From a phage: a stretch of DNA of 64,000 nt. Positions within the stretch are counted from its first letter, which is position 1, and each line of letters starts with the position of its first letter. Positions 2,213 to 30,008 of this stretch are shown here, one piece after another. The notes under the pieces are model-generated. The model did no database searches and was not told the DNA's origin. It worked only from the letters and a program-made list of their open reading frames with translations. The DNA is taken from the sequence record PX969468.1. The stretch is one strand, 5' to 3'. The position numbers and the translations under genes were made by a program.

Positions 2213-2881
2213 ATGGCTGTAGCTTATCCTACAATACCAATTCCAGATCTTGAAGATGCAGAAACAGTCCTGAGTGATGACTTCTTGGTTGTCAACCAGA
2301 CTGATGGGACAAGAAAGGCTAAGATTGACGATGTTGTCAACGATCTTAGCATTACTAAGATAGTCTATTTCACAGATGGTGGCTATCTTAAGAGCAAGAA
2401 GGACTTTGCTTATGACCCAGAGACTAAGCGCTACTACACGTGGAACGGGGATTATCCTAAAATAATCCTCCCAGACTCCACTGTAGAGGGTGCTGGGGGT
2501 GTGTCTGCAAATGCATGGTCTGTTTTTGGTGAGCTTGCTGCAACTTCTTATGGCAGAATAGTTGATTACGGATCTATCGGCGGTCAGCTTGATATGGATC
2601 TTGAAGTTGCGGATACCTTTAAGGTTCGACTAACTTCAAATACCACAATCTCTTTTGAAAATCAAACAGAAGGTCTTGAAGGTGTGGCGAGAACTATAAC
2701 CGTATGCATTACTCAGACCTCTGGCGGCAACAAAGTCTACTGGCCTGATAATGTTAAATGGGCCTACGGAAGAGATCCTATCCTAACATTTACAGCTGGT
2801 GCAACAGATATTTTCAAGTTGGAAACCTACGACAACGGGTTAACTTGGTACGGGGCACTGATCATCGCAGGAGCTATCTAA
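2213..2881 (+). CDS. fiber-related protein sharing N-terminal anchor domain with the 5516..9316 fiber
   Basis: N-terminal ~110 aa align with N-terminus of 5516..9316 (DDFLVVNQTDGTRKAKIDDVV vs DDYLVVQQPDLTRRVKIGDVV; DFAYDPE vs DFAYFEE). Confidence 0.45.
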   Translation: MAVAYPTIPIPDLEDAETVLSDDFLVVNQTDGTRKAKIDDVVNDLSITKIVYFTDGGYLKSKKDFAYDPETKRYYTWNGDYPKIILPDSTVEGAGGVSANAWSVFGELAATSYGRIVDYGSIGGQLDMDLEVADTFKVRLTSNTTISFENQTEGLEGVARTITVCITQTSGGNKVYWPDNVKWAYGRDPILTFTAGATDIFKLETYDNGLTWYGALIIAGAI

Positions 2882-2882
2882 G

Positions 2883-5480
2883 ATGCGTATTCAACACAAC
2901 ATTGATAACGTATTTCAGATGATTGAGGGGCACAGGAAGTGCCTCGATAACAACACAGGTATTACCAACACCTCTACACAAAATAGGCTAGTAAACCCTG
3001 ATGGTCTTATAGCTGCAGGGTGGGCAGGTAATAAGATAAATAATGATTGGGCAATGCATGAGTCCCAAGCTGTGTTGATTCTGGGATACATTGAAGCATA
3101 CAGGGCATCGAAAAGCGATTTCTATCTGGATAGGGCAAAAGATGCTTGGGAAGCTTACAATAGTCATCTTCTGGGTGCATATGCTGTAGAAAGTAAAATG
3201 CAAAGATTGTCCCACTACCCTCTATCCACAGACGGGGTTCCATCACATGGTGGGTTTAAAGATGTGGTGGTGTCTTTTACCAATGGTAGAGGAAAAATCC
3301 CAACTGGATCTCCGACATGGGGGGAATACCTGGACAAGGCATTCCAAGCGTATAACGGTGTGTTAGGAAGAAACACTGTAGACTCTGATGTTTACGGTGG
3401 CACAGATGCTAACCCAGATTGGACAACATCCGGATTAAGTTGGTGGGTTGAGTGGTACATAGCATGGGATGGTAACCGCTATTGGGCTAACGGTAGCATA
3501 GCCGACAGTGGTCATACGTCTGTAGAGTTCGGCACAATCCAATTACAAGATAAGGGTGTTACAGGCAGCCACAAGGTGACCTATTGTGTAAGATTACCTC
3601 AAGAGCAGGGTGGATCGGTGATACCTGCAGGATCCCCTGTAATTGTAAATCCTATAAACGTGGTTGCAGATAATCAGGCCCCAGAGCTGGACGGGGAAGA
3701 AATGTGGTGTGACGCTTGTTATCAACTCTACACCTTGACAGGTGAGGAAAAGTATTACACCGCGTTTAAACAGTCTTACAACAAGTTGCTTAATTTCAGT
3801 GATATAAACGCCTACGACAAGCTGTTTAGAAAGACCACGTTGATTAAGGCACCGTTCACGGATGGTACTTGTCTTGTTGCAGGAACAGTTCCTGTCATGA
3901 GCAGGGACAGTGACGGGTATATCAATTTTAGAATGAACGCACGCCAGCCTTGCGAAATAATTCAAAAAGGGACTACATACAAAATAGGCAGAGATGCTGA
4001 AATTGTTATGAATTTCGGAGGAGAAGGGGTTCTGTTCCAGCCGCATTTCATCCTTAACGATGGCAACAATAACAAAAAACAGTACAGGATAGGGGTTCCT
4101 TTTGGAGGGGCAGAGGTAACAGAAGTAGTTGCCAAGGTCACTGATTTCGTAGAGGTAGTTGGTAAAGACGGTAATCCGTATCTCTTACCTAAAGAGGAAA
4201 ACATTGCCGTAAGCGGTGGTGCTAGTGTCAGTATGCAGTATGATACCGACATTTACAACCACTCTGACAACTTCACCCGTTGTAATATAGCAAGAGGCAA
4301 AGTAACTTTCAATTTTGGAAGAGAGATTTCTTTAAACTCAGTAACTTATCGATCAGATGATGAGATGGTAAGGGTCAAATTTCTTGACAAAGACAGGTGG
4401 TTATGGTATGCTGATCTATATGCCACTAATGGACAATGGATAACAGAAACTCTTACTCTAGGAGATTTCAAACTAGATCCGACACAACCTCATCACACCG
4501 AAGAAGAGATTAAACCTTTCTTTGCTAATCCTAAGGGGCTCACCTCTGTAGATTTCAGCCTAAGCGACAGACAGATAGGTAATGGCTTGTTTGATCTGTA
4601 TTGCGTCAACACACTGCCGCAATTTTATATTGCAGATAGAGATGCTTATCTAATCTGGTTTAGCGTATGGATGGCAAGCAAGACAGAATCAACCGCTAAG
4701 GTTGGCGATTGCTATGTCAGAAACTACAAGCAAGGTGCATACAGGCACACACCGGGTGTGTTCCCTGCCGGAAAGGTGATAGATAAGGAAAACTATCTCT
4801 TAGAGGAAAGGCCAAATTGGCCCTACCCTGGCATGCAATACCCAGCAGTCTACTGCATGGGTGCAGAAAACATAGATCGCCATAGATTGTCAAATACAAT
4901 AGGCTTTCTGTATGACGCTCAAGTCTGGTATAATAATACATTTAAGACAGAGGGTCCAGTTGCCTCACGTTATGTATGGCAAAGAGGTAATGAAGGGTTG
5001 ACTGGTTGGTGGGAGATGGTAGATAACTCTAAGCTCCAGTCAAGATCTTTTGTTGCTGCGTGCCGCACAATATATGAGCTCAAGAAACATAAAGAACCTG
5101 TTGATGAAAGACTATTCCTGTTCTGCCAGAAATGGGCATGGTTCCTCAACAGATTCCAGTCATCTCATTCAGGAAATCTGCCTACAGACTTTAACACCTC
5201 TGGGGGATATTCTTATCAGGACAGAGGAGACAGGATGTGGGTGGTAGGTGAATGGCTTGCAGGTTGCTGCTGGCTAGGTCTGTGCGGGTATTCAGAGACA
5301 ATACCTCAAATAGATATTGTTGTGGAAGCCTGTGTGAAGCTACTGCAAAAGCACCACTTCATTAATGGGGATAATATTTTAAACGGCTGCTGGGCAGTTT
5401 CTGACCCGGTTGGCTATCACTCTGGCGAAATCCTTCGCGGTCTAGGTCTTTATGCTCAATACCGTGGATTGTACCTTTAA
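2883..5480 (+). CDS. large tail-associated protein, possibly alpha/alpha-toroid glycosidase-like (candidate depolymerase)
   Basis: 865-aa ORF, Trp/Tyr-rich helical segments (ESQAVLILGYIEAYRASKSDFYLDRAKDAWEAY; DPVGYHSGEILRGLGLYAQY) reminiscent of six-hairpin glycosidases; hairpin plus T-run downstream at 5485-5503. Confidence 0.3.
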   Translation: MRIQHNIDNVFQMIEGHRKCLDNNTGITNTSTQNRLVNPDGLIAAGWAGNKINNDWAMHESQAVLILGYIEAYRASKSDFYLDRAKDAWEAYNSHLLGAYAVESKMQRLSHYPLSTDGVPSHGGFKDVVVSFTNGRGKIPTGSPTWGEYLDKAFQAYNGVLGRNTVDSDVYGGTDANPDWTTSGLSWWVEWYIAWDGNRYWANGSIADSGHTSVEFGTIQLQDKGVTGSHKVTYCVRLPQEQGGSVIPAGSPVIVNPINVVADNQAPELDGEEMWCDACYQLYTLTGEEKYYTAFKQSYNKLLNFSDINAYDKLFRKTTLIKAPFTDGTCLVAGTVPVMSRDSDGYINFRMNARQPCEIIQKGTTYKIGRDAEIVMNFGGEGVLFQPHFILNDGNNNKKQYRIGVPFGGAEVTEVVAKVTDFVEVVGKDGNPYLLPKEENIAVSGGASVSMQYDTDIYNHSDNFTRCNIARGKVTFNFGREISLNSVTYRSDDEMVRVKFLDKDRWLWYADLYATNGQWITETLTLGDFKLDPTQPHHTEEEIKPFFANPKGLTSVDFSLSDRQIGNGLFDLYCVNTLPQFYIADRDAYLIWFSVWMASKTESTAKVGDCYVRNYKQGAYRHTPGVFPAGKVIDKENYLLEERPNWPYPGMQYPAVYCMGAENIDRHRLSNTIGFLYDAQVWYNNTFKTEGPVASRYVWQRGNEGLTGWWEMVDNSKLQSRSFVAACRTIYELKKHKEPVDERLFLFCQKWAWFLNRFQSSHSGNLPTDFNTSGGYSYQDRGDRMWVVGEWLAGCCWLGLCGYSETIPQIDIVVEACVKLLQKHHFINGDNILNGCWAVSDPVGYHSGEILRGLGLYAQYRGLYL

Positions 5481-5515
5481 CATAGGGGGCTGTTTGCCCC
5501 CTTTCAGGAGAAAGA

Positions 5516-8500
5516 ATGGCTGATATTAAAGTTGTCAGAATTGAATCTCTTCCTGCCACTACCGCAGTGACAGAGGATGATTACCTGGTTGTTCAACAAC
5601 CAGACCTGACTCGTCGTGTAAAAATTGGCGATGTTGTCCATGTTGATGGGACTGTTTCTCATGTAATCTCCTTTAAGGAAGGTGGTAAGTTAAACGGCCC
5701 AATGGATTTTGCCTACTTCGAAGAGGAAGACCTCTACCTGCGTTGGAAAGGCGAATTTCCACACACTGTTCCTGCACTGTCTTCACCGTACTCCGATGGT
5801 GGGATTACTGACGCTGCATGGATGGTATATACAGATCCGTCCTTAAGGGAGGAGCTGGAATCTACCATTGGCGCATCTATGATCATGACAGCCGAAGGGC
5901 AGTCTGTCCAGGATGTAATGGATGTTACTGTTCAGACAGCTAACGATGCTAAAGCCCTTGCACAGCGTGTAGATTTTGGTACAGTGCACACTGTAGGCGA
6001 TGTTATTCACCTTGATAACTTTGTTGGCCCTGCAGTTATTGAAGAGGGAAGAACTACCAACTACCCTTCTGTAGCAGCTGGTGAAAAATTTCTGAATGGT
6101 GTGGTATCTCGTCGTGATACTACAACTGTTGATGGTATTTTCCGTGGCGCTACTTCAGGAGCCATGTATACCATTGCAGTAACCAACGGTGTGGCAACAA
6201 CAAAAAGAATAGCACTTCGTGATGAATTTAAACGCCTAGAGGCAAATACCCCAACAAGAACAGTTATCCGTGCTGGAGATGACTTAAACACGGCAGGGTA
6301 CTTGCAGCTTGACGCAACAGGCCGTTGGGGCATGTGGAACCAACAAACAGCCTCGTGGCAACCTCTTGCTATAGAGCAAGGCGGTACAGGTGCCAGGGAT
6401 GCCGCAGGTGCACGCATTAACTTGGGGGCTTTCTATAAGCAACGTGCAGCCCTTGAGCCAAATTTCAATATCAATAACTTGACTGGTAATCAGGATGGTG
6501 TATACTACCAACCGATGACTGCTTATGCAACCGAGGCAAATGGTTACCCTGCAGGTTCTGGTGCTGGTCACTTGATTGTTTGGCAGAACAATGCTAACGG
6601 CGGTACAGGTTGTCGTCAGGAATACTATCCATTCTCTAACGTAGATGTTTGGTATTTGAGAACCTATCAGGCCAACACAAACCAGTGGACTGCATGGCAG
6701 CCGATGGTCAGACCTCGTAACGATGATACCTTTAGATCGCACATCGGTCTTGGGCCTAGAAATACCCCTACCTTCGGGCACCTTTACCTGTCTCAAAGTT
6801 CTGCTGATGTTAAGTCGGCATCAGGTATTGTTAACGGGGACAAATACAGTGCTGACGGTGTCCTTGAGCACGGGTATAGGATCTACTCTGAAGTAAGAAA
6901 CGACAATAAGGCTTGGTTGACAATCCACCTACACAAAGGTGCAAAAGGATCTGAAACTCATAGATATTTGGGTTTCCGCGAAGACGGTGTATTAGACTGC
7001 CCTAAATACATGCAGGTTGGGGATCTTACTGGTCAGCTGACAAACTGGGGACTTGGAGAGTGGATCCGTAGTTCAGGGGCAGAAAGAGGCTTCTGGGGGT
7101 CTAAGAAAGCCGCCAAGATGGTTGTCTGGGATGGTGGGATGGACGAATCCGGTAACGGCACTCTGGAATGGGGTGTTTATAACAACCGGAAGGCCAAGTG
7201 GGAACCTTTACCTCAAGCCGCAGGCGGCACTGGGGCTACAACTTTAGCAGATGCTCAGAATCTGTTCAAAGTTCCTATAGCAGCAGGTGTAAAAGACTTC
7301 TTGACACTGCCAAGAACCGCAGGGATGGAAGATGGGAAATACTACCCAATTATCGTTAGAACAGATCCGTATTACGCCCCTTCGACAGGTACAGATATTA
7401 CCATAGTCACCAGGTCTTCATCTGGAAATGACCCTATGAACTGTGCCACCCTGCAGTGTCACTATAGAACTGGTGGCTGGACGGACAGGGGAGACTCTTT
7501 CTACGGGGTAGTAAATTTCTACCAGAATGAAAAAGCACTTCTTGGGATGGTTGCTCCAACAAGGGGTAAACAAGAGTATGTTGCTTTCTATGTAGAGGCT
7601 CGTGCTTTCCCTGTCAGCATATACGCAAGTAGAAATGTTGTCGAAGTGTTTACCAGAGAGCAAGATTACCAGGTCGGGGCTGTAACAGACAATCAGGATG
7701 GGGTTAAGTTCGTTGCACCTCTTCAGTCAGCAGATTTGAATCTTGCTATTCTTGGAGATAACAACACCAATACCAGACCTATTGTTGACTTCAAAGGTAC
7801 TTCAGGGTTCTACACTGGTGGCGGCACACAGTGGCACTATATAGGCACTGCTGAGCGCTATGCTGTGATGAGCAAAATGAATATGCCAAAAGTCGAGCTA
7901 TGGGCAGACGGCCTTGACTATTTGTGCTACGGCAGTCCTAGAAAGGCGTTATTCTCTAATGCAGGATTCCAGTGTGCATCCGATGGGACAGAGGATCTGA
8001 CTAACGGTACGTTTACCTCTAAATGCGGTAATGGTGCTGGTCTCAAAGGTCAGGCAGAGTTCAGATCTACTCCAGAGGCTGGTCAAGTTATTGTTCGTGA
8101 TGTTGTAGGTTCTGCTCACAGATTCTACAACTTCAACAAAGATGGCACTTTCTCAGCTCCTGGTGGTTTTGTATGCCACACAGGTGCAGACTGGAACAAC
8201 CAGTTCGGGAATAACAACCCTTCTAAAATAATGGCTGGTAACGTCAACGGACCTGAAGGTTCCATGGTTGTAGCAGGGTTGTCGGTTGGTTTTTCTGGAA
8301 ACTACGCTTTCCAGATGGCAGGTCGTTTAGACCAGCTGTACACTCGTTCCATAGAGCAGGGAAACCACAGAGCGTGGAACAAAGTTATTCAGCACCGTGG
8401 TCAAGGGTTGGGAACTAATGACCTTAACGACTACAAAGGAGATAGAGAGGGTTTTTATCATCAGGAGGCCAATGCTCAAGCCGCACTTGATAGAAACTAC

Positions 8501-9316
8501 CCATGCTCTCAGGCAGGTACTCTCCTTGTCTATAGAAACTATGTCAACGTTCCAGAGAGTTGCGTACAGGAATATACAACATATCTTGGAGAAAAATTCC
8601 TGCGTTATGGAACAACGATAGGTGGTGTTTTCACATGGGGCCATTGGCAGCAGCTTGGCGGTAAGGGTATCACTTTAAAAACTCAAGGGTCCAATCTTGA
8701 ACCTGAGTTCACAATACACACAGGTGGTGGTACTGATGTTACCAACACTTCGAACATGCCTTCTAATACAGGCAGGTTGTACTATTGGGGTGATGGCGCT
8801 GATAGGAAGAATGTGTTTGAGTTTCAGATAAGTGATAACTCAACAGCCGCCAGCTGGGTATTCCACTGCGGAGCTAAGGCAGATGAGGCTAAATCAAGAT
8901 ATTTTGCTGTCAACGGCACGGTAGAATGTACCACTGTTAGCCAAAGTTCCGATAGAGACCTGAAGGATAATATAGAGGTCATACCTAACGCTCTGGAAGC
9001 AATTAGAAAGATGAAAGGCTATACCTACACCTTGAAAGAGAATGGTATGCCTTATGCAGGCGTGATTGCTCAAGAGGTTATGGAAGCATTGCCAGAGGCA
9101 GTAGGATCTTTCGTGAAAAGGAAGGAAATAGAAGGTCCTACTCAAGACGGTATTCCTCTGATGACCGAGGAAAGGTTCTATAACGTTGACTACGCAGCTG
9201 TAACAGGCTTGCTTGTCCAGGTTTGCAGGGAACAGGACGATAAAATAACCGCCCTTGAGGAGCAGGTTAAAAAATTGACAGAGGTTGTTACTGGATTGCA
9301 AGAGAAACTGAAGTAA
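5516..9316 (+). CDS. tail fiber/tailspike with C-terminal S74 intramolecular-chaperone autoproteolytic domain
   Basis: 1266 aa; C-terminal SDRDLKDNIEVIPNALEAIRKMKGYTYTLKENG...GVIAQEV hallmark of peptidase S74 chaperone domain followed by coiled coil; strong RBS; terminator downstream. Confidence 0.75.
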   Translation: MADIKVVRIESLPATTAVTEDDYLVVQQPDLTRRVKIGDVVHVDGTVSHVISFKEGGKLNGPMDFAYFEEEDLYLRWKGEFPHTVPALSSPYSDGGITDAAWMVYTDPSLREELESTIGASMIMTAEGQSVQDVMDVTVQTANDAKALAQRVDFGTVHTVGDVIHLDNFVGPAVIEEGRTTNYPSVAAGEKFLNGVVSRRDTTTVDGIFRGATSGAMYTIAVTNGVATTKRIALRDEFKRLEANTPTRTVIRAGDDLNTAGYLQLDATGRWGMWNQQTASWQPLAIEQGGTGARDAAGARINLGAFYKQRAALEPNFNINNLTGNQDGVYYQPMTAYATEANGYPAGSGAGHLIVWQNNANGGTGCRQEYYPFSNVDVWYLRTYQANTNQWTAWQPMVRPRNDDTFRSHIGLGPRNTPTFGHLYLSQSSADVKSASGIVNGDKYSADGVLEHGYRIYSEVRNDNKAWLTIHLHKGAKGSETHRYLGFREDGVLDCPKYMQVGDLTGQLTNWGLGEWIRSSGAERGFWGSKKAAKMVVWDGGMDESGNGTLEWGVYNNRKAKWEPLPQAAGGTGATTLADAQNLFKVPIAAGVKDFLTLPRTAGMEDGKYYPIIVRTDPYYAPSTGTDITIVTRSSSGNDPMNCATLQCHYRTGGWTDRGDSFYGVVNFYQNEKALLGMVAPTRGKQEYVAFYVEARAFPVSIYASRNVVEVFTREQDYQVGAVTDNQDGVKFVAPLQSADLNLAILGDNNTNTRPIVDFKGTSGFYTGGGTQWHYIGTAERYAVMSKMNMPKVELWADGLDYLCYGSPRKALFSNAGFQCASDGTEDLTNGTFTSKCGNGAGLKGQAEFRSTPEAGQVIVRDVVGSAHRFYNFNKDGTFSAPGGFVCHTGADWNNQFGNNNPSKIMAGNVNGPEGSMVVAGLSVGFSGNYAFQMAGRLDQLYTRSIEQGNHRAWNKVIQHRGQGLGTNDLNDYKGDREGFYHQEANAQAALDRNYPCSQAGTLLVYRNYVNVPESCVQEYTTYLGEKFLRYGTTIGGVFTWGHWQQLGGKGITLKTQGSNLEPEFTIHTGGGTDVTNTSNMPSNTGRLYYWGDGADRKNVFEFQISDNSTAASWVFHCGAKADEAKSRYFAVNGTVECTTVSQSSDRDLKDNIEVIPNALEAIRKMKGYTYTLKENGMPYAGVIAQEVMEALPEAVGSFVKRKEIEGPTQDGIPLMTEERFYNVDYAAVTGLLVQVCREQDDKITALEEQVKKLTEVVTGLQEKLK

Positions 9317-9323: not shown

Positions 9324-9349
9324 GCCCTCGCTTCGGCGGGGGCTTTTTG
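9324..9349 (+). terminator. rho-independent terminator (UUCG tetraloop hairpin plus T-run)
   Basis: gccctcgc-ttcg-gcgggggc followed by tttttg directly after stop codon at 9314-9316. Confidence 0.7.
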
Positions 9350-9415: not shown

Positions 9416-10006
9416 ATGTTTTTATGGGAAAGGCCTAGATACCTTCCAGATATTAGATTGGAGCTGCTGGCAGATATTGTTACGTTTAAAAGTCCGTTTA
9501 CAGGTAAAACGCAAAAAGTGACCTATGCCACACCTAACTGGAAAGGCACTTTGACGGTTTCCAATATCAGCGAGTCACAGCTGCTAGAGCTTAAGAGCTT
9601 TGTTGATCAGGTGTATAAAGATGGGAACATTTTTCTTATTAAAACGTACGGTCACTCAGTAACAGCTAATGAGCCAATCGCCCTTGGGCCTACTGGTAAC
9701 GACGATTTTTTGAAGACGGTCGGATGGGAGCCAAACAGAGACATAGCCAGAGCTGGGGATAAAATATCTGTCAATGATGAATTGAAAGTGGTAACAGCTC
9801 CAGTGCGCAGCGATGGTGTTGGGTCTGCTGTCATAAGCATATCCCCAAGACTTAGAAAACCTATTGCCGCAGGGGACACTATGAAGATAATAACTCAATC
9901 CCCAAAGGGTAGGTTTCATATCAGAGATATTTATAAAATTAAGCAAAAAGTCGATGCTATGCAAAAAGGTGATAATATAGTTATCAACTTCTTTGAGGAT
10001 TTCTAA
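9416..10006 (+). CDS. hypothetical tail/baseplate protein
   Basis: 196-aa ORF with RBS (ggagg) in structural operon; weak resemblance of KGTLTVSNISES to lambda gpL-type motif, not relied upon. Confidence 0.35.
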   Translation: MFLWERPRYLPDIRLELLADIVTFKSPFTGKTQKVTYATPNWKGTLTVSNISESQLLELKSFVDQVYKDGNIFLIKTYGHSVTANEPIALGPTGNDDFLKTVGWEPNRDIARAGDKISVNDELKVVTAPVRSDGVGSAVISISPRLRKPIAAGDTMKIITQSPKGRFHIRDIYKIKQKVDAMQKGDNIVINFFEDF

Positions 10007-10007
10007 G

Positions 10008-14823: not shown

Positions 14824-14829
14824 CAGTAA

Positions 14830-22586: not shown

Positions 22587-24332
22587 ATGGCGCAAGACAT
22601 GACAAGCTTCGAGCAGGCGGTAGATCAAGTAATTGTTGATTCTGAACGTTTGCACTTGATTGTCAACGGTAACGCTGTGGATGAAGTTGTCGTAGAGGAT
22701 GGGACCACCATCCCTACGGTACGAAAAGCCATGCTTGACACCCTTTATTTTAAAACGCCACCAATCCCTTGGGCGTATGGTGCATCCACAACAGTTTTTA
22801 ACCAGTTGTATGAGTTTAAAGGGGATACAGGCACTCAGTGGTGGTATGCCCCAGCAGCATCAAAATCTAACCCGGTTAGGATGCCAGCAGATCCTTCACA
22901 ATCTCCGAACTGGAGATTATATACCGATTCTGCAGTAATGGCAAAATACTACGCAAAACTTAACAGTCCAAGGTTCGAAGGTGACCCGAGAGCACCTACA
23001 CCTCCAATGGACGATAAGTCCGAGTCTATAGCAAACACAGAGTTTGTTGTTGACTATGTGGATAGTATATTCAAAGCCATGGAGGGGATGAAAGTAACTG
23101 TAGGGTCTTTGGTAGTAAAAGGTCTTACAGAACTGGCTAACACCATAGTTGGTGGCACCCTTACCATACACGGGCCTGTTAATGGAGCGGATTCTACTGC
23201 ACGCTTCAGGAACCTAATCCTTACTGCAAATACTTCTACACTAACTTTTGCGTGGAGCGATCCTAAGCATGCCGACTGGAGAAGCACAGAGCTGCAACCT
23301 CATGAAGTATCCACCCACAGAGTTATAGCCGACACTATAACCTCTGGGAAACCAGTGGCTAATAACAACGATGTGCATTTTGACGGTCTAGGTAATAACT
23401 TTTTTGACTACGTGTACATTCGTGGTAATGCCATGAAGGCAGCAACCGAACCGACATTGCAGGTCGATGGGACCACTAGGGTTAAGAACCTTGAGGTGAC
23501 AGGTACCGTTACAGGGATAACCTACTCTGTCGATGGCACCATGATCTACCCTAGCTATATTGAAAGCACGGGTGACGCATTAATAAATGGTGATTTGGAG
23601 GTTGGCGGGTCTGTAGTTATTCGAGGTACGGCCTCTATCCAAAACATAGCTCTGAATACTCTCAGAGTCAATGAGCGTGCAACTTTTGAAGGAGAAGGGC
23701 TTACAGCCAACAAAGGTGTAATTACCGAGCTGACAACCACCACTTTAACTGCAACAACTGCAAACTCTGAAAACTGCAACGTTACCAGAAACTTGCAGGT
23801 AAATGGGGATGTTAGTTTAAACGCAGCAGGTACGGGCACCACCTACCTTCACAACCTTGAAATATCCGGCACAGTGACTGGTTGGCTGCCAGACTTCTCT
23901 AATGTCAACTTTGTCTGTAATGGTATTAACTCTAGTGGTAAGATAACCACCTCTCAAGAAATTGAGGCTGGTAAAACCATCACTGCCCCTACTTTCCACG
24001 CAGGGAAGGTAGATTTCGATTTAGAGGAGGTTGACGCGTCCAGTGGGACATGGACACCTAACGGGCAGGCCAGTATGTATGTTGTCCACGCTAAAGGGGA
24101 TTTTACAATAGGCCAATGGCCTGGAACATCGGCTGAAGATAAACCTTACCCGTTTACTGCAATCATCTATGTCATTCAAGATGCCGTAGGCCACAACGTG
24201 ACTTTGCACGATAAATATGCCATACTGTCGGCTACCCCTGTTATTAACAACAAAGCCAACAGCGTCACCTTGCTACAATTGACATATTGTGGTGTTGGTG
24301 ATATCGTAGATGTGGTTATTGCACAACGTTAA
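22587..24332 (+). CDS. tail fiber/tailspike-like protein
   Basis: 581 aa, Thr/Gly/Asn-rich beta-rich repeats (VTGTVTGITYSVDG; LTATTANSENCNVTRNLQVNGDVSLN); RBS; terminator downstream. Confidence 0.4.
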   Translation: MAQDMTSFEQAVDQVIVDSERLHLIVNGNAVDEVVVEDGTTIPTVRKAMLDTLYFKTPPIPWAYGASTTVFNQLYEFKGDTGTQWWYAPAASKSNPVRMPADPSQSPNWRLYTDSAVMAKYYAKLNSPRFEGDPRAPTPPMDDKSESIANTEFVVDYVDSIFKAMEGMKVTVGSLVVKGLTELANTIVGGTLTIHGPVNGADSTARFRNLILTANTSTLTFAWSDPKHADWRSTELQPHEVSTHRVIADTITSGKPVANNNDVHFDGLGNNFFDYVYIRGNAMKAATEPTLQVDGTTRVKNLEVTGTVTGITYSVDGTMIYPSYIESTGDALINGDLEVGGSVVIRGTASIQNIALNTLRVNERATFEGEGLTANKGVITELTTTTLTATTANSENCNVTRNLQVNGDVSLNAAGTGTTYLHNLEISGTVTGWLPDFSNVNFVCNGINSSGKITTSQEIEAGKTITAPTFHAGKVDFDLEEVDASSGTWTPNGQASMYVVHAKGDFTIGQWPGTSAEDKPYPFTAIIYVIQDAVGHNVTLHDKYAILSATPVINNKANSVTLLQLTYCGVGDIVDVVIAQR

Positions 24333-24366: not shown

Positions 24367-24380
24367 ATCTGGAGAACACA

Positions 24381-27300
24381 ATGCTTCCAATCCCTTTGCT
24401 AAAACTTGGTCGTCATTTCCTCGATAAGAGGGGTGGAGTTAAGGAACTTGCTGTTCTGTCATACCCAATAGACAACAGTGACGGTACAAGCACTACAGTG
24501 CCATATGTAAATAGCTTAGCCATACTTTTTGACGACGGTCAACTCAATATTACAGGTTACAACAGGTTCGGGGAGTGCAGGACTGGAGATCTTGACACGA
24601 TAAACTACCCAAATGAGGCTGCCTGGAACGTTGATCATGTGTGGAGAGCAGACCGTGCGTTTGTGATCCGAACTTTTGATAATCAGTTTTTCTACATCGG
24701 CTGCACTGCAGGGCTTATTGGATCTGATGCTGCAGGTGGTAATGATGTTTGTGTAAGGGAGTGGACACCTCTTCCTGAACAGATTGTTAAAGGGTTGCAC
24801 CTTGACACCCACCCGGAGCGCCTTGTTGAGGTGATGGGTGGTATTAACAACACTGTCTGGGTTATTGCAGAGGCAGAAGGCACAGGCATACTGAATCTGT
24901 ATGGGTCTGGTAACAACACCTACGGATCTTTGCATGTAGATAAAAATCAGCATGCAACCCCTGTAAAGATCGGTGAGACATCGGAAAATCCTGAAACAGG
25001 CCCTTGGAAAAACCCAAGCATTAACTGCGAGGTGCATGACAACTCTGTTATTTTCGGTGGTCCTAGAGGTTTCTGGATTGCTGGATACGACTTTCTGAGA
25101 AATAACAGTAGAAACGACCTTGTTTGGCCTCCTGTGCAGATTACTCGTAACGATTTGAGAGGCATTCCTGCAGATGAGGAGTGGAAAGGGTTTATGTGTG
25201 GTCCTAACGGGGCAATAATTGCCACACAGAGGATGCACAAACCTAATGACCAGCAGCTTGTTAACGTATTCTACGGGCAAGACGTCTGGGGAGATGACAC
25301 ATGGCGTTCCTTAAATATCACCTACACCCATGAGGTGATAATGGCTCGTGGATACGGCACAAGTGGCATTTTCTTCAATAATGGCACTAAGCAGTATCGT
25401 GGGTTCTCTCGCAACTTGTGTAATGATATTGGTGCACAATCTGCAAACAATAGCCCTAGGGCCAATTTTATCCACTATCAAGCTCTTGCTACAGCTAAAT
25501 ATGTTGAGCAACGCCTGCCAGTTAGCTGGACAGAGAGTGTTTATTTCCAAGGCATCCACAGAGAAGGTTTCTTAGGGACCTTTACTGTTGTTAATGGTAA
25601 ACTTTGGTGGTCAGGCATCCCGAGGGGAAGTTTTGCAGGATCTAACAACCTGTTTGGCGGCAGACTTAATAGTCAGGGGTTCACAGAGGTTCCTGAGAAT
25701 TGGTATAAAAATGTCCCAGTAGACAGTTGGGGTGTTGATGATATTTTCGATGTTAACGGTGTTAGCAGCGTTAGCAATATCTACATTGGTGACACGGTCA
25801 AGATGAAACTGAAGCCTCAGCCAGAGGGGGCTACGTTCATTATTGACAAAATTGAACTGGTAAATGCTGCAGGCACGGTTGTTACAGATGCAAATTACCA
25901 ATTCTCCACCAACTGGAACCACGGTGGGGCCAACGAAGTTGTTGTTACCCAATATAACAGAAATGTTAACAGACGTGGACTGTACTCTGTAAAAATAACC
26001 TATCATGACAAACATGGCACAGGCAGAACCCACACAACAAGGACTTTGAACTGGAACACTATCGTCCCAGCGTACCCGTCTGATGGTAAATGGCATACTG
26101 TCGGTAGAAACAAACAGTTCCATGTCAACGATACTGTATACTTTGGGTTGAATGCCGCCCAGCCTGCAGTAGAAGGGGATACATCGTATATGGTCAGACT
26201 CCATAGAATGGATGCTGGATCAGTAACTTATGATGTTACTCAAGAGATTTATAATCAGCGACGAAATACCTATGATAACTTGGTGCAGACACAGGCCTTA
26301 TGGGAGTTCAACCCAAACGGCAGAGGTGGTAAAATGTTGCAGGTCAATGAACAAAACTGGACATCGTTGACTGTTCACGAACACCAAAACCCTTGGCCTG
26401 ATCCTGGAAAACCTAACTCTGGTGCTCGTACACTGAAAATTGTCAGCCATGATGTAGGGTATTTCGGAATACGCTGGGAAGCTACAGTAAGATATGCTGA
26501 TGGGACAACAAACAACATAGGGATCACTCTTGGTGGCACTAGTGAGGATAACTCACTGAAAATTGCCTACACCCCTAGAGGCATCTCTATTGACAATATG
26601 GATGTTGTTCGCAACGGTTACGGCGATGTGAATGTCAAAGTTACTCTTGGCGAACATCTTGGTGGGGAAAGGATCATCATGTATGCCTTTGATCATGACC
26701 CTCGCACCAATGGAACCTATGCAGACCAAGCATGGAGTTACCTGATAAGCGCACCTGAGCCAAATACTAAAGAATTCTACTATGGTATGAAGCGAGATGT
26801 GTGCAAGAAAACAGGAACACATGACTGGATTGCTATCTGCGTTAAAGATGAGCGCACAGCTTGGGATGAGCCTGTTAACAGATGGTTCATAGGTATTCCT
26901 ACCAGAAGTGATAAGTATGTCGCAGAGTATATTGTATGCATGGGCGGTACCAACCTGAACATGTGTTGGAACGAAGATGTAAACAAATACTCTGATTATG
27001 ACTATATGAGGGATTACTCTTGCAATCTGTGGTTTAACCAAACTACAGGTTACCCTCCGCGTCAGGCAAGGGTAAATCCTGCAATCTTTACAGATACTCA
27101 GGTTTTCTTGACAAAACAGGCCAACGAGGTTCAGACCTTCAAGAATAAATACGATCCTAACAAGTGGTTCTACAACTGTTACGGCGCATTTTTCTGGGGC
27201 CCTGGTGAGTTACCTGGTGGAGGATCTTGCTTGAATGAGGCAACTTACGCCAGTGACTACATCATGGGGCAGGTCAAGAAGTATAAGATAATTCCCGGTC

Positions 27301-30008
27301 CTGAAACTCTGGGTAATGCCGTTGACCCTTATATCATCATGACTGCACTGAGATCCAACATGGACGGGACATCCATGTCTATGCAAATTCCGGTAACAAA
27401 CGGGTACAAACGTGTTGTGATGATCATTAAGTGCGACTTAATAGGTAAACAAGTTCTTGCAGAAAACGGGACATCCACACATCCTTTTGAGGTTGCTCTG
27501 CACTATCAGTTTGCTGACTCACCTTTTGCAGGCGATAAGAGAATATCTGATACAGATGCACAGCGTTGTAAGAAAGTATTGTTGGGTGCAGGTTGGTGGT
27601 GGTATGAGTTTGATTTAACAGACAAATTCACCGACACGTCTAAAGTTGTAACAGGACTTCGTCTAGACCTTGGTGAGAACATGCACAAAGCTGTTTGTGA
27701 TGGCACCTATGGTGACCCTACAATATACCTAAAATATATTTCTTTTGAGCATCCGGAAGATGTTGTCTACGGTCCAAAACTGAGATTGTTTGGCAGTTGG
27801 ATTGCAAAAGATAGGGTAGGGATGGGTAAGAAGGTGAGAGGGTTCTTGGTTGATGCAGGAACAGAAGACATGCTGGTTAATGCAGTATGGCCTGAATTAC
27901 CCGGGACTCAGTGGAACAACTCAGCCAAATCTATAAACTGGTTTAACATTCATAGAGCCATGTGGACCACCAACTGCTACTTGTGGAGAGAGCTTAACGA
28001 TCAGGCCTTTGGCTTCAGCGATGGTAGAAGGATGGCGATCATTTGCTGGACAACACTGCAAAGATGTTATGACCATGACTACGAGATTGGGGGCAGGGCA
28101 TGGAAAAATATCAGGGACAGAATCATAACCAATTTTGCAGACGACAACGGTGGTGGAGCACATAACTTTGGCACAAGCCGACTCATCCATTTGAACGGAT
28201 CCTCAGCCTACAAGAAAGAAGGTTACTCTGGGTCTATGATCGAGTGGGGTCTGGTGAAAGATGCTCGCGTATTGATGGGCCAGCAACTTGCTGCCGCAAT
28301 AGGTCCCAGCGCAGTGCAGTCGGTTAAACCAGCGTGGTTCGATATTCCAATATGGTCATCTGGAACACCAGGAACTGCTGCAATCAATCCTACTACCGGG
28401 GATCTGGAAATCTCTTGGGAGGACTTGAAGCAGGTTGGGGGCTGGGATAAGACAGGGTACCAGGTGCAATGGTGGAGGTCTGACGGATCGTTAGCTGCTG
28501 ATGAGTTTGTTAAGGACAACTTCTACACCATGCCCTCTGCAAAAGCACAACAACTGTTCGGTCAGTCTACCCCGTCAACGATCACCATGTCCATGTGCTG
28601 TAAAGACAACAGGACTGGAGCTTTGGGCCCAAGGGTTGCTAAAGTTTTCTCAGGTATCAAATGGAATCTTCCTGTTCAAAGTGTTGCATGGAAGCAAATA
28701 GGCGATAACAAGCTGCTAGTTACCCCAGCTTGTCAGTTCAACGCAACTCTTAACGTTGATCCTGCTGTTGCGGCAAACTCAGCTAAAGCTTCTGACTTCT
28801 CTGTGTCTAACACTGCCATGGCAGATGTGAGGAAGATTGACACGCTGAACGCCAGAATTACCTGTAAAAACACTTATGGCACATTTCAGATCATCAACAA
28901 CTTCACAGACGCGGATTCTAAGGTAGTGAGGACAGCAAGCCAGACTCTGAGTTTAGGAACTCTGGCCTATGCGGCCCTGATCACTGAACAGTCAGCAACA
29001 CTCCAAGGGGGTGGTGTAGGCAAGTCCATTACAACACCTGTGTGGAAGCCAAATGAGTGGGTTGTGTTTGATTTGACCGTGGACTTCTCCAGCGATAATA
29101 ACTGGACATGGGTAAGGAATTGCTTGTCACAACTGATGGGTGGTCCAAGCTCCGTTAGTGATAGCCACTACTCCACTGACCCGAGTGTGTTTCAGGTGGG
29201 TAAAACTCACCCGGAGACTGGAGCAACGTTGCCTGACAGGAAGTATGCTTTGGTTTGCATCTCTTACGGGAAGGCAGATGTCACCTTCTCAGGGACACAC
29301 ACTTATAACGGAACCTACAACTTCTCAAGGAAGTATAGTCTCAAAGCAGGGAACATTATAGACGAGGTTGGTGTGCTGTATAATCCTGGCAACGGCATAG
29401 GGATTGTGGGCGGTAAACTGCAGATGCAGGAACCTTCTATTACCCCTTCCAACGTATCCGGGATTAGAAAGACTTGGGAAAGTAGTAATACCAACATTGC
29501 AACAGTGGATGCCACCACAGGGCTGGTAACATTTAAAGCTACTGGGAATGTCACCATAAAGTTTGTAGTTACAGATGATGCAGGCCGCAAAACGTCTTCA
29601 ACATCGTTTACTGTCAGACAGATGGCACCTCAGTGGTTTATTTGGGAAGGAAATCCTCTTGACGGGGCTTACCCTAGACCTGCAGGAACGTCCAATATGA
29701 GGGTCTTTACCGGTCCGGTCATGAACAATCCGACCACAACCACCAACCCTACATTTTTTGGTGCTTACATACCTGAAATTATTGGCCTACCAAGGAACCA
29801 GATACAACTGCTTTTCGGAGCAGGTGTTGATGGTCTAGCCACTTTTGGGTACAGTGACAACATTGATGCAGCCAGAAGCTCGGGTTGGATTGGATTTAAG
29901 TTTCAGTGGAACCCTGGTGGTAGAACATTAGGTGTTGCAAGCATAGGTGTTATGCTACCTGGTGACCAGCAATACCATCTCGAAGCTTATACAAACTTCC
30001 CTAGTTAA
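24381..30008 (+). CDS. giant (1875 aa) virion-associated protein with N-terminal RCC1/beta-propeller-like repeats and C-terminal Big_2 Ig-like domain
   Basis: GSGNNTYGSLHV-type RCC1-like repeats near N-terminus; Big_2-like segment SNVSGIRKTWESSNTNIATVDATTGLVTFKATGNVTIKFVVTDDAGRKTSSTSFTV near C-terminus; last gene of rightward structural block. Confidence 0.5.
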   Translation: MLPIPLLKLGRHFLDKRGGVKELAVLSYPIDNSDGTSTTVPYVNSLAILFDDGQLNITGYNRFGECRTGDLDTINYPNEAAWNVDHVWRADRAFVIRTFDNQFFYIGCTAGLIGSDAAGGNDVCVREWTPLPEQIVKGLHLDTHPERLVEVMGGINNTVWVIAEAEGTGILNLYGSGNNTYGSLHVDKNQHATPVKIGETSENPETGPWKNPSINCEVHDNSVIFGGPRGFWIAGYDFLRNNSRNDLVWPPVQITRNDLRGIPADEEWKGFMCGPNGAIIATQRMHKPNDQQLVNVFYGQDVWGDDTWRSLNITYTHEVIMARGYGTSGIFFNNGTKQYRGFSRNLCNDIGAQSANNSPRANFIHYQALATAKYVEQRLPVSWTESVYFQGIHREGFLGTFTVVNGKLWWSGIPRGSFAGSNNLFGGRLNSQGFTEVPENWYKNVPVDSWGVDDIFDVNGVSSVSNIYIGDTVKMKLKPQPEGATFIIDKIELVNAAGTVVTDANYQFSTNWNHGGANEVVVTQYNRNVNRRGLYSVKITYHDKHGTGRTHTTRTLNWNTIVPAYPSDGKWHTVGRNKQFHVNDTVYFGLNAAQPAVEGDTSYMVRLHRMDAGSVTYDVTQEIYNQRRNTYDNLVQTQALWEFNPNGRGGKMLQVNEQNWTSLTVHEHQNPWPDPGKPNSGARTLKIVSHDVGYFGIRWEATVRYADGTTNNIGITLGGTSEDNSLKIAYTPRGISIDNMDVVRNGYGDVNVKVTLGEHLGGERIIMYAFDHDPRTNGTYADQAWSYLISAPEPNTKEFYYGMKRDVCKKTGTHDWIAICVKDERTAWDEPVNRWFIGIPTRSDKYVAEYIVCMGGTNLNMCWNEDVNKYSDYDYMRDYSCNLWFNQTTGYPPRQARVNPAIFTDTQVFLTKQANEVQTFKNKYDPNKWFYNCYGAFFWGPGELPGGGSCLNEATYASDYIMGQVKKYKIIPGPETLGNAVDPYIIMTALRSNMDGTSMSMQIPVTNGYKRVVMIIKCDLIGKQVLAENGTSTHPFEVALHYQFADSPFAGDKRISDTDAQRCKKVLLGAGWWWYEFDLTDKFTDTSKVVTGLRLDLGENMHKAVCDGTYGDPTIYLKYISFEHPEDVVYGPKLRLFGSWIAKDRVGMGKKVRGFLVDAGTEDMLVNAVWPELPGTQWNNSAKSINWFNIHRAMWTTNCYLWRELNDQAFGFSDGRRMAIICWTTLQRCYDHDYEIGGRAWKNIRDRIITNFADDNGGGAHNFGTSRLIHLNGSSAYKKEGYSGSMIEWGLVKDARVLMGQQLAAAIGPSAVQSVKPAWFDIPIWSSGTPGTAAINPTTGDLEISWEDLKQVGGWDKTGYQVQWWRSDGSLAADEFVKDNFYTMPSAKAQQLFGQSTPSTITMSMCCKDNRTGALGPRVAKVFSGIKWNLPVQSVAWKQIGDNKLLVTPACQFNATLNVDPAVAANSAKASDFSVSNTAMADVRKIDTLNARITCKNTYGTFQIINNFTDADSKVVRTASQTLSLGTLAYAALITEQSATLQGGGVGKSITTPVWKPNEWVVFDLTVDFSSDNNWTWVRNCLSQLMGGPSSVSDSHYSTDPSVFQVGKTHPETGATLPDRKYALVCISYGKADVTFSGTHTYNGTYNFSRKYSLKAGNIIDEVGVLYNPGNGIGIVGGKLQMQEPSITPSNVSGIRKTWESSNTNIATVDATTGLVTFKATGNVTIKFVVTDDAGRKTSSTSFTVRQMAPQWFIWEGNPLDGAYPRPAGTSNMRVFTGPVMNNPTTTTNPTFFGAYIPEIIGLPRNQIQLLFGAGVDGLATFGYSDNIDAARSSGWIGFKFQWNPGGRTLGVASIGVMLPGDQQYHLEAYTNFPS

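Follow-up and report, generated by a model that had tools for sequence, protein, structure and literature searches.

A probable host-recognition locus in an rV5-like Vequintavirus phage: a published type of receptor-binding arsenal that includes a Seuratvirus-like tail-tip cassette

Positions 2213..30008 of the 64,000-nucleotide stretch analysed here (the window) very probably constitute the host-recognition locus, that is, the baseplate periphery and tail fibres, of an rV5-like Vequintavirus myophage, running from the equivalent of rV5 gp43 down to that of gp27. The window DNA is ~96% identical to that of rV5-like Escherichia phages of the genus Vequintavirus, with full synteny and 96% nucleotide identity to rV5_ev147, slur12/16 and WalterGehring, and protein identities to these phages of 93-100% gene by gene. 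All open reading frames named in an earlier sequence-only reading of this DNA are present where it placed them, on the + strand. Its claim of at least six fibre-like genes was conservative, as we count nine fibre or receptor-binding candidates and one chaperone, and its idea of a multi-component receptor-binding arsenal assembled from shuffled modules is supported by domain and homology matches. The arsenal is indeed unusually large compared with phages in general, but within the genus such a set is the norm, the same locus being carried by ~110-130 database genomes. The cluster of receptor-binding proteins is confirmed as real but is already published, and the framing as an unusual discovery was wrong: such an arsenal, glycan-active domains included, is a hallmark of the Vequintavirinae and related phages, in which orthologous loci are described (PMC8594841, PMC7229145), an extensive tail fibre set has been described for phage LL12 (PMC7229145), and the three lateral fibre sets of this 'nanosized Swiss army knife', with their conserved and variable genes, have been reported together with the receptors ECA/NGR and LPS core (PMC8594841, PMC11990801). 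Overall, the earlier interpretation of the locus is partly supported. What has been under-described is that four of the genes together make up an entire tail-tip module, acquired from an unrelated phage with a long tail.

Possible absence of these proteins from virions, which the sequence-only reading had raised as a matter for proteomics, has already been addressed in rV5, where the orthologues are mostly present: mass spectrometry detected gp27, 30, 32, 33, 34, 36, 37, 41, 42 and 43 (PMC3606486; Table S5). Three points come from the literature: that the proteins are in virions, that NGR/ECA and the LPS core are the receptors, and that phi92 co-displays three fibre types. In the published model, co-displayed fibres would bind or process surface glycans, short fibres would then engage the outer-core glucose of LPS, and contraction would follow.

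In the organization that we propose, the locus would be built around a conserved contractile-tail baseplate core:

1487..2203, + strand: sheath initiator (238 aa), rV5 gp44 equivalent, just upstream of the locus; PDB matches in phiTE and phi92
14928..16418, + strand: baseplate wedge protein 2, rV5 gp36 / phi92 gp145; Pfam Baseplate_J
16430..17116, + strand: baseplate wedge protein 1 equivalent, rV5 gp35 / phi92 gp146; phrog_4056 'baseplate protein'

The sheath initiator matches that of phiTE (9mjn_d6) over aa 1-171 (E=5e-61) and phi92 gp139 (E=5.5e-15), but its C-terminus is ~60 aa longer than in phiTE. There, the sheath initiator contributes its C-terminal helix to the bundle formed by the long-tail-fibre N-termini (PMC11972413). 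The wedge 1 equivalent is 50% identical to a baseplate protein of PBES02 and 30% identical to phi92 gp146. Because we found no baseplate structure for Vequintavirus sensu stricto, fibre positions in this phage are extrapolated from phiTE (wedge 2 match to PDB 9cuy_T, E=3.4e-158, 51% identity) and phi92 (gp145, E=1.2e-55, 32% identity); even for phi92, the 2026 cryo-EM paper left fibre II unassigned and did not resolve gp141 or gp142.

This core would carry a fibre set that is common to phiTE and Mydovirus, comprising two short fibres of the Mu-S/phiTE type, a chaperone and a fibre of the phiTE long-tail-fibre (LTF) type:

19201..20241, + strand: short tail fibre paralogue 1, rV5 gp33; phiTE short-fibre N-terminus, Mu fibre S-like C-terminus
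20256..20840, + strand: tail fibre assembly chaperone, rV5 gp32 / phi92 gp148; Pfam Caudo_TAP (E=8.4e-12)
21253..22299, + strand: short tail fibre paralogue 2, rV5 gp30; phrog_4465, the same PHROG as 19201..20241
22587..24332, + strand: fibre (581 aa), rV5 gp28; phiTE long-tail-fibre anchor N-terminus, phi92 gp151-like C-terminus

The short fibres proposed at 19201 and 21253 are borne out as paralogues (43% identity) served by the single chaperone at 20256. Both have N-termini of the phiTE short-fibre type (PDB 9cuy_c; E=1.5e-19 for aa 1-108 of the first) and, judging from the homologous phiTE baseplate, whose structure has been solved and shows where these N-termini bind (PMC11972413), would be docked on wedge 1. 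Mu fibre S (5yvq) matches aa 286-343 of the first paralogue, phi92 gp147 matches its two termini, and phi92 gp148 is 31% identical to the chaperone. Similarly, the protein at 22587 is a fibre, although the label 'tailspike-like' needs correction: its N-terminus is the baseplate anchor of the phiTE long tail fibre (PDB 9cuy_g; E=5.9e-77, aa 8-325). Over aa 6-112 it shares 44% identity with the N-terminus of phi92 gp150 and over aa 486-581 it shares 49% with the C-terminus of gp151; a Mydovirus fibre is 40% identical to it over the full length.

Two genomic slots would have taken up accessory receptor-binding and glycan-active proteins, which were added to this core and which combine modules of unrelated phage lineages into chimeras. 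The mosaicism of domains, like the gene identities, homologies and synteny, is directly observed: matches across the locus run to phi92 gp140, 141, 142, 147, 148, 150 and 151, a T5-like fibre, N4-like podoviruses and the Seuratvirus tip cassette. Certrevirus has nothing in the slot that separates the sheath initiator gene from the wedge genes; Mydovirus has tailspikes there, phi92 has gp140-144, and the present phage has seven genes. Two of the accessory proteins, at 2213 and 5516, would be anchored through Tail_spike_N:

2213..2881, + strand: small fibre/adaptor protein, rV5 gp43; N-terminal Tail_spike_N, then phi92 gp140-like C-terminal domain
5516..9316, + strand: lateral tail fibre (1266 aa), rV5 gp41 allele; Tail_spike_N, T5 L-shaped-fibre-like shaft, S74 intramolecular chaperone

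The N-terminal module that these proteins were said to share is indeed common to both (37% identity over 99 aa, E=1e-17), and Tail_spike_N scores 40.6 bits in the first (Pfam E=2.8e-10) and 41.2 bits in the second, against a curated Pfam cutoff of 25 bits. The module is a Tail_spike_N domain of the CBA120 TSP1 / G7C gp66 type; in those systems, tailspikes are attached through this N-terminal region in branched complexes. In sister genera, other receptor-binding proteins encoded in this slot, namely phi92 gp151 and gp140 and the Mydovirus tailspikes, begin with the module or with its first ~50 aa. The smaller protein also matches phrog_7760 'tail fiber protein', is 41% identical to phi92 gp140 over aa 109-222, and has its orthologue, gp43, in rV5 virions (PMC3606486). 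The S74-chaperone fibre proposed at 5516 was correctly recognized (Peptidase_S74 at aa 1145-1196, E=6.8e-15); over aa 237-1261 it is 35% identical to a tail fibre of the T5-like phage slur09, and eight peptides of gp41 were found in rV5 virions (PMC3606486, Table S5). It is one of three allelically variable fibre genes, with alleles across Vequintavirus at 80-99% identity.

The suggestion that the two module-sharing proteins are interchangeable alternatives does not hold, as they are encoded together and both orthologues are found in rV5 virions; the common baseplate adaptor proposed as their docking partner is hypothetical. More broadly, it is highly improbable that the short-fibre paralogues or the Tail_spike_N pair are carried by different particles, through phase or population heterogeneity, rather than co-displayed. 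The two paralogues flank a single chaperone gene, and the same anchor in both Tail_spike_N proteins could compete for one site. However, all genes lie on one strand, and a search around the short-fibre paralogues found no invertase, no invertible-segment repeats and no convincing inverted repeats; the last 63 nt of 21253..22299 are 79% identical to those of the other paralogue. Furthermore, gp30 and gp33, as well as gp41 and gp43, occurred in the same rV5 virion preparation (PMC3606486), and phi92 particles show three fibre types together (PMC8594841; phi92 2026 cryo-EM paper).

Two further accessory proteins are candidates for action on glycans, a glycoside-hydrolase-like one at 2883 and an N4 gp65-type TIM-barrel protein at 17116; the target of the latter, according to published genetics, would be the conserved NGR glycan:

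2883..5480, + strand: tail-associated protein (865 aa), rV5 gp42 / phi92 gp141; predicted split (alpha/alpha)6 glycoside-hydrolase-like barrel
17116..19188, + strand: N4 gp65-type receptor-binding protein, rV5 gp34 / phi92 gp142; Calx-beta-like N-terminus, NCTSP_N, TIM barrel

For 2883..5480, the glycosidase-like call holds at the level of the predicted fold, in a structure model of moderate confidence (pLDDT 64) with a central beta-sandwich insert at ~aa 330-615. For 17116..19188, which had been described as glycosidase-like with Calx-beta, the Calx-beta match (24.8 bits) does not reach the cutoff (27 bits), and strong matches are instead found to TIM-barrel_NCTSP (E=6.7e-80), NCTSP_N (8.8e-13) and the N4 gp65 type (PDB 9lc0_M, E=1.4e-24). 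This protein is 42% identical to phi92 gp142, is conserved at 95-99.7% in all Vequintavirus records, and is represented in rV5 virions by four peptides of gp34 (PMC3606486, Table S5). The N4 gp65-type protein has been linked to binding of the N4 glycan receptor (NGR) (bioRxiv 10.64898/2026.04.02.716166, PMC11990801). The authors of the LL12 study recognized no enzymatic domains in its tail proteins (PMC7229145); as this conflicts with the BASEL annotations, enzymatic activity is a candidate function, and unproven.

The largest accessory protein would be a giant RCC1-like/Ig protein:

24381..30008, + strand: 1875-aa protein, rV5 gp27; putative divergent RCC1-like N-terminal domain, Big_2/intimin-like Ig

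Of its proposed RCC1-like and Big_2 features, the second is directly found (Pfam Big_2 at aa 1682-1733, E=4e-8, in a Big_2/intimin-like Ig domain spanning 1682-1747), whereas no RCC1 Pfam match appeared even at E<=10. A putative RCC1-like domain over ~aa 1-200 or more nevertheless holds through transitive homology only, aa 1-197 being ~40% identical to Phapecoctavirus proteins that match WD40_RLD, RCC1 and Big_2. For ~1,400 aa of the protein, relatives were detectable within the genus only, and when 1.84 billion representatives were searched exhaustively with HMMER, only nine clusters were found, one of them full-length. Three peptides of gp27 were found in rV5 virions (PMC3606486, Table S5).

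It is possible, if doubtful, that several large proteins of the locus should not be counted as receptor-binding fibres. The one at 2883 could serve the baseplate as a structural or enzymatic accessory, and the one at 24381 could be a decoration or adhesin of Ig/RCC1 type that sits elsewhere, on the tail, neck or capsid side, and helps the phage adhere to surfaces or mucus in general instead of recognizing a specific host. The predicted fold of 2883 is globular and enzyme-like, and the rV5 authors listed it as 'tail associated' (PMC3606486, Table S5); 24381 has no fibre-type domain, its Big_2 domain is of a kind seen in Hoc-like decoration proteins, and much of its length is without detectable relatives. 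In phiTE, a third putative fibre, which the authors of that structure locate towards the capsid side, is contacted by the long fibre (PMC11972413), and in PBES02, of the same genus, an RCC1-like gene directly follows the long-fibre gene. The phi92 2026 cryo-EM paper did not count gp141 or gp142 among its fibre-shaped candidates. Conversely, both 2883 and 24381 lie inside the fibre locus, both count as components of the lateral tail fibres in the BASEL annotation, and the gp27 gene is one of three allelically variable genes (PMC8594841), with identities spread over 90-99%, which suggests host-driven selection.

Finally, the accessory set would include a complete Seuratvirus-like tail-tip cassette (9416..14823), with a J-like protein last:

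9416..10006, + strand: Dit / lambda gpM-like protein, rV5 gp40
10008..10559, + strand: tail-tip protein, rV5 gp39; phrog_2048 'tail protein' (E=9.5e-68); start codon taken from relatives' annotation
10559..10984, + strand: DUF6950 protein, rV5 gp38; Pfam DUF6950 (E=5.5e-34)
10984..14823, + strand: lambda-J-like tail-tip/host-specificity protein (1279 aa), rV5 gp37; Pfam Ig_J, Ig_J_second (1.4e-30), Phage_Tail_Tip (2.4e-38)

The last of these had been taken for a coiled-coil long fibre, and is instead a lambda-J-like tail-tip protein (PDB 8iyk_J, E=4.6e-28) with a coiled-coil insert. It starts with a hub-like N-terminal part (aa ~48-490) and J Ig-like domains (493-652); after the insert (~650-950), which is allelically variable, come the central-fibre domain of J (955-1115) and a C-terminus that is specific to the genus. 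Identity to the J protein of Seuratvirus SLUR63 is 56% over aa 48-721 and 59% over 931-1124. The SLUR63 genes directly after the tape-measure gene are collinear with the cassette, similar in size and, in order, 33/40/45/56% identical; the counterpart of the third carries DUF6950 (2e-39) and a faint NlpC/P60 hint (E=0.1). The cassette is intact in ~130 Vequintavirus records and absent from four sister genera.

This raises the question of whether a whole organelle was co-opted, and not J alone: a self-contained siphovirus-type tip complex, consisting of a Dit/gpM-like ring, a J trimer and the second tip protein, with the DUF6950 protein as its assembly factor, might sit on the contractile baseplate periphery and serve as a lateral 'fibre'. 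We consider this unlikely. Collinearity with SLUR63, conservation of the cassette and its position between the two top-ranked terminator-like hairpins of positions 1-20000 all speak for it, as does the homology of the hub-like part (aa 48-532) to the SLUR63 and K21lambda1 J proteins; gp37 is present in rV5 virions, and the rV5 authors reported HHpred matches to Mu-gp44-type hubs (PMC3606486). However, the phage already possesses a hub, a spike and a tube initiator of its own, which leaves a second hub-like complex without an obvious seat; gp38 and gp40 were not found by number searches of the rV5 mass spectrometry table (Table S5, PMC3606486), so that these small proteins may act solely as chaperones; confidence in the Dit-like model is low (pLDDT 50); and phi92, the sole relative with visualized fibres, lacks the cassette and offers no density attributable to it. 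We prefer to regard the cassette as one accessory among several on the conserved core, in which the J-like protein would contribute to host recognition. Its flanking elements are as follows:

9324..9343, + strand: terminator-like hairpin directly upstream, GCCCTCGC-TTCG-GCGGGGGC, then T-run
14829..14850, + strand: terminator-like hairpin directly downstream, AAGCCCCGC-TTCG-GCGGGGTTT, then T-run
14866-14894: promoter-like site after the second hairpin, TTGACT-17-TAAAAT, extended TG

Among terminator-like elements in positions 1-20000 of the window, the upstream hairpin ranked first and the downstream one second.

The locus is rV5-like. In a megablast search with positions 2213-22000, 127 GenBank phage records were matched, 110 of them with at least 80% query coverage at 90-99% identity, and the best (rV5_ev147/ev156, slur12/16 and WalterGehring) showed about 96% identity over 100% of the query. 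Positions 22000-34000 gave a similar picture among GenBank phages (93-97% identity), and all matches of both nucleotide searches were to Vequintavirus (subfamily Vequintavirinae). The locus shows full synteny and high nucleotide identity with rV5-like genomes, and its proteins, compared gene by gene with those of WalterGehring and rV5_ev147, are 93-100% identical. As the lengths and order of the window genes agree with Table S3 of rV5, the interval can be read as rV5 gp43 (2213) to gp27 (24381). The open reading frames named in the sequence-only reading are all present on the + strand at their coordinates, and are listed here with their neighbours (start alone where one number is given).

1487..2203, +, sheath initiator
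2213..2881, +, short Tail_spike_N protein (rV5 gp43)
2883..5480, +, glycosidase-like candidate (gp42)
5516..9316, +, large fibre (gp41)
9416, +, Dit/gpM-like protein, first gene of the J cassette 9416..14823 (gp40)
10008, +, second cassette gene (gp39)
10559, +, third cassette gene (gp38)
10984..14823, +, J-like protein, fourth cassette gene (gp37)
14928..16418, +, wedge 2
16430..17116, +, wedge 1
17116..19188, +, N4 gp65-like protein (gp34)
19201, +, short fibre (gp33)
20256, +, chaperone (gp32)
21253, +, short fibre (gp30)
22587, +, fibre with a phiTE long-fibre N-terminus (gp28)
24381..30008, +, giant protein (gp27)

Gene order, protein lengths, protein identity (93-100%) and Pfam content (S74, Calx-beta, Big_2 and the J-type tail protein) are those of rV5 and other Vequintavirus, in which the orthologues are virion components by mass spectrometry. 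The differences from rV5 are allelic only: gp41 has 1266 aa here and 1272 aa in rV5, and gp27 has 1875 aa and 1878 aa, respectively. Among Vequintavirus records, three large fibre genes are allelically variable, namely 5516 (80-99% identity), 10984 (about 83-99%; the window allele belongs to the 95-99% class and not to the class near 83%) and 24381 (80-99%, mostly 90-99%), whereas 17116 keeps 95-99.7% identity. The hub gene is interrupted by the start of the window, in which no tRNA genes were found.

Several of these features have been described before. The authors of the rV5 study picked gp30, 33, 37, 41 and 43 as fibre-like, with HHpred results near those obtained here, and detected gp30, 32, 33, 36, 37, 41, 42, 43 and 45 in virions, with peptides in their Table S5 also for gp27, gp34 and gp41 (PMC3606486). 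The BASEL study found allelic variation confined to the three largest genes and regarded two short fibres plus a chaperone as typical of Vequintavirinae sensu stricto (PMC8594841); the primary receptor was assigned as the enterobacterial common antigen ECA (later as the N4 glycan receptor, NGR), and the terminal one as the outer-core glucose of LPS (PMC8594841, PMC11990801). Absence of these proteins from virions, which would have spoken against the sequence-only reading, had thus already been looked for by mass spectrometry in rV5, and the proteins passed. The observation of a large fibre arsenal is therefore confirmed, with three gene descriptions corrected. As the rV5 paper, BASEL and a 2026 preprint already describe the locus, its virion proteins and its receptors, the multi-fibre locus is a re-discovery of a textbook property of rV5-like phages, and as first put forward it adds nothing new.

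The N-terminal module said to be common to 2213 and 5516 is indeed shared (37% identity over 99 aa, E=1e-17), and corresponds to Tail_spike_N, which scores 40.6 and 41.2 bits in the two proteins against a Pfam cutoff of 25. In 2213 this anchor is joined to a phi92 gp140-like domain. In 5516 the proposed S74 chaperone is present (Peptidase_S74 at aa 1145-1196, 55.6 bits against a Pfam cutoff of 22), and the shaft resembles the tail fibre of a T5-like phage (35% identity over aa 237-1261); the rV5 authors had earlier seen the likeness of gp41 to an L-shaped fibre (PMC3606486). Tail_spike_N also heads proteins of the branched tailspike complexes of CBA120 (TSP1-4) and G7C (gp66-gp63.1), and the PDB sequence matches include TSP1 (4oj5) and TSP4 (5w6h) of CBA120, as well as 4qnl. 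Unlike those complexes, neither 2213 nor 5516 contains a tailspike body domain in Pfam, and XD-type docking domains and beta-helix bodies were not identified: one bearer of the anchor has only 222 aa, and the other has the T5-like shaft. For 2883, described as glycosidase-like, structure prediction agrees at the level of the fold, giving an (alpha/alpha)6 barrel as in GH105, GH88, GH76 and GH8-like hydrolases, with only 7-13% sequence identity to the structural matches. No family HMM matched this protein (Pfam at E<=10; NCBIfam), a direct sequence search of the PDB returned nothing, and a profile search gave marginal matches to cellobiose 2-epimerase only.

The protein that had been called a coiled-coil long fibre, 10984, was mis-described. 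It consists of lambda-J Ig-like and tail-tip-fibre domains with a coiled coil inserted between them (Pfam Ig_J; Ig_J_second, E=1.4e-30; Phage_Tail_Tip, E=2.4e-38), and it matches lambda J in the PDB (8iyk, E=4.6e-28). Annotation pipelines name this protein J; NCBIfam lambda_TipJ is matched over aa 497-723 only and not at full length, scoring 148.5 bits where the cutoff is 1950. Outside Vequintavirus, its closest relatives are siphovirus J proteins: identity to the J of Seuratvirus SLUR63 reaches 56% over aa 48-721 and 59% over aa 931-1124, and to that of a Klebsiella lambda-like phage 43% over aa 49-532. The homology therefore includes the hub-like N-terminal part. Furthermore, collinear counterparts of the three genes upstream of 10984 (196, 183 and 141 aa) lie between the tape-measure gene and J in SLUR63 (194, 194 and 144 aa), with identities of 33%, 40% and 45%, and the third carries DUF6950 in both phages. 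The four genes are thus collinear with those of the Seuratvirus (Queuovirinae) or lambda-type tip, and share its J hub-like part and its Ig-like and central-fibre domains. However, that tip directly follows the tape-measure gene on a non-contractile tail, whereas the window cassette is set among fibre genes in a phage with a contractile tail. In relatives of this phage the tape-measure gene lies several genes upstream of the locus, before the phage's own tube initiator, hub and spike.

The J-like protein itself differs from SLUR63 J in three respects. Its N-terminal ~45 aa are polar, where those of SLUR63 J are strongly hydrophobic; it has a coiled-coil insert of ~250 aa, to which all differences among Vequintavirus alleles are confined; and its C-terminal ~150 aa are different, and conserved within the genus. 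Compared with the allele class of 'phage C12', the window J is 83% identical overall, with all divergence in the coiled-coil insert (aa 650-950), and the presumed receptor-binding C-terminus (aa 1000-1279) is 94-100% identical between the two classes. The complete cassette occurs in about 130 Vequintavirus records, and nothing equivalent exists in the loci of phi92, Phapecoctavirus, Certrevirus and Mydovirus. On either side of it stand the two terminator-like hairpins that rank highest in the first 20 kb (9324-9343 and 14829-14850), which have TTCG loops and similar stems. We consider it possible, if rather unlikely, that a whole Seuratvirus-like cassette was captured, kept as a terminator-bracketed unit and assembled at the periphery of a contractile-tail baseplate as a tip-like organelle for receptor binding, with J remodelled by a polar N-terminus, a variable coiled coil and a new C-terminal domain. 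Alternatively, J alone may serve as a fibre, rather than all four proteins forming a tip-like complex at the baseplate periphery. The rV5 authors reported gp37 in virions and labelled it only 'host-specificity'; gp38 and gp40 were not found by number searches of the mass spectrometry table (PMC3606486). Among open-access papers, we found none that treats the J cassette of rV5-like phages as a tip module of siphovirus type or takes up the relationship of the whole cassette.

For 17116, the Calx-beta domain named in the sequence-only reading stayed below the cutoff (24.8 against 27 bits), and the strong Pfam matches were instead to NCTSP_N (E=8.8e-13) and TIM-barrel_NCTSP (E=6.7e-80), both above cutoff. 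The protein also matches an N4 chain in the PDB (9lc0_M, E=1.4e-24) and is the orthologue of phi92 gp142 (42%). It thus shares its two domains and the structural match with N4 gp65, a non-contractile tail sheath and NGR-binding protein, but gp65 sheathes a podovirus tail, whereas 17116 belongs to a myovirus baseplate locus and has an additional Calx-beta-like N-terminus. The 2026 preprint links NGR recognition to the domain resembling N4 gp65 in the gp142/gp34 family (bioRxiv 10.64898/2026.04.02.716166), and published genetics together with sequence comparison point to a putative role of 17116 in NGR glycan binding or deacetylation.

The two short fibres, 19201 and 21253, are paralogues (43% identical), each with a phiTE short-fibre N-terminus; 19201 has a Mu-S-like C-terminus, and between the two lies the Caudo_TAP chaperone 20256, of the Mu-U or lambda-Tfa type. 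An invertible switch between the paralogues, like the G segment of Mu, was considered and rejected, as a search for inverted repeats brought up nothing meaningful and every gene is on the same strand. The N-terminal 320 aa of 22587 are those of the long tail fibre of phiTE (PDB 9cuy_g, E=5.9e-77); compared with phi92, the protein has an N-terminus like that of gp150 and a C-terminus like that of gp151. In Pfam at E<=10, its C-terminal half gave only noise. The giant protein 24381 had been called RCC1-like with Big_2. Big_2 is matched, but RCC1 likeness is seen only through homologues: RCC1, RCC1_2 and WD40_RLD of Pfam were unmatched in 24381..30008 even at E<=10, whereas an exhaustive HMMER search related aa 1-197 (36-46% identity) to six clusters of 391-891-aa proteins, all six of which match WD40_RLD (E=1e-9 to 1e-12) and RCC1, and five of which carry Big_2. 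Two motifs of the RCC1-like form G-x-N-x-x-G are seen, at aa 59 and 177. When aa 1-1200 were searched with HMMER against 1.84 billion representatives, the sole relative of aa ~200-1200 was one 56%-identical cluster. For about 1,400 aa of this virion-associated 1875-aa protein (aa ~200-1680), no family match and, apart from that cluster, no homologue was detected. NCBIfam contributed only J and intimin fragments across the proteins searched.

Baseplate structures have been solved for two relatives. For the core of the window baseplate, the closest solved structure is that of phiTE, a Certrevirus (PDB 9cuy, 9mjn), whose chains match wedge 2 (3.4e-158), the sheath initiator (5e-61) and the N-termini of the short fibres (1.5e-19) and the long fibre (5.9e-77). 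In phiTE, wedge 1 is the binding site of the short fibre (PMC11972413). By homology to phiTE, 19201/21253 and 22587 would be the core fibres, coupling receptor binding to sheath triggering. With 238 aa, the sheath initiator here is longer than the phiTE chains (163-177 aa), to which its match stops at aa ~171; because the C-terminal helix in phiTE binds the long fibre, the extra ~65 aa could offer an additional docking surface for extra fibres.

Unlike the window, Certrevirus (as checked in PBES02, of the same genus as phiTE) has nothing separating the sheath initiator gene from the wedge genes and lacks an N4 gp65-like gene; its long fibre (793-1074 aa) is longer than 22587, and the RCC1-like gene of PBES02 encodes only 398 aa. 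Phi92 (Justusliebigvirus) shares with the window the wedge, the sheath initiator, the short fibre and chaperone (gp147/148), gp141 (the (alpha/alpha)6 protein) and gp142 (N4 gp65-like); the N- and C-terminal modules of its gp140, gp150 and gp151 are also found in the window, combined differently. Phi92 also has an endosialidase (gp143) and a colanidase (gp150), both absent from the window, and lacks the J cassette, a second short-fibre paralogue and a giant gp27-type protein. Across the five genera compared, the contents of the slot between sheath initiator and wedge differ: Certrevirus has none, Mydovirus has tailspikes, phi92 and Phapecoctavirus have gp140-144, and the window has seven genes. 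The N4 gp65-like gene of the window occupies a second slot, located between wedge 1 and the short fibre; in phi92 and Phapecoctavirus the equivalent gene, gp142, is in the first slot. Furthermore, Mydovirus tailspikes carry the N-terminal ~50 aa seen in 2213 and 5516. Leaving the anchor's putative partner aside, these sequence comparisons support a modular accretion that would have proceeded on shared anchors. The original interpretation is thus supported in part: modularity and shared anchors stand, but the interchangeability of receptor-binding domains and the "common adaptor" are hypothetical.

The results bear on a problem that has outlasted two cryo-EM studies of relatives, namely the assignment of genes to the lateral fibres of Vequintavirinae and the roles of most glycan-active domains (PMC8594841; PMC13450770). 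What remains of value here are the phiTE-based docking inferences, the two-slot picture of accretion and the embedded siphovirus tail-tip cassette. The comparative map yields testable assignments, comprising the core fibre set shared with phiTE, the two slots and a siphovirus tip cassette inside a myovirus, which could guide host-range engineering in a phage group widely used for biocontrol of E. coli O157 and for therapy.

Promoter-like sites were at chance level (35 found, 34 expected) and were therefore not used, except for one site beside the cassette terminator. Further strong terminator-like hairpins lie directly after 20852 (21176-21197), 22587 (24340-24361) and 24381 (30024-30045, bidirectional and at the strand switch); the locus thus appears to consist of several transcription units, with a large fibre gene at the end of each. 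Elsewhere in the window, a group I intron was found at 53018-53253 on the + strand (Rfam RF00028, 64.7 bits, E=4e-14), and the DNA polymerase CDS of WalterGehring is annotated as two joined pieces with a homing-endonuclease ORF inside. Some 17-25 'UNVERIFIED: Campylobacter phage' GenBank records (MG0656xx, e.g. L009 = MG065635.1), with C. jejuni as host and classified as Vequintavirus, are roughly 95% identical to the E. coli rV5-like locus of the window; probably their host labels are wrong or the cultures were mixed. Finally, fragments identical or nearly identical to two window proteins (P0008 and P0013) have been deposited as 'hypothetical protein, partial' of Eggerthella lenta and Escherichia coli, which suggests that phage sequence was carried over into bacterial assemblies.
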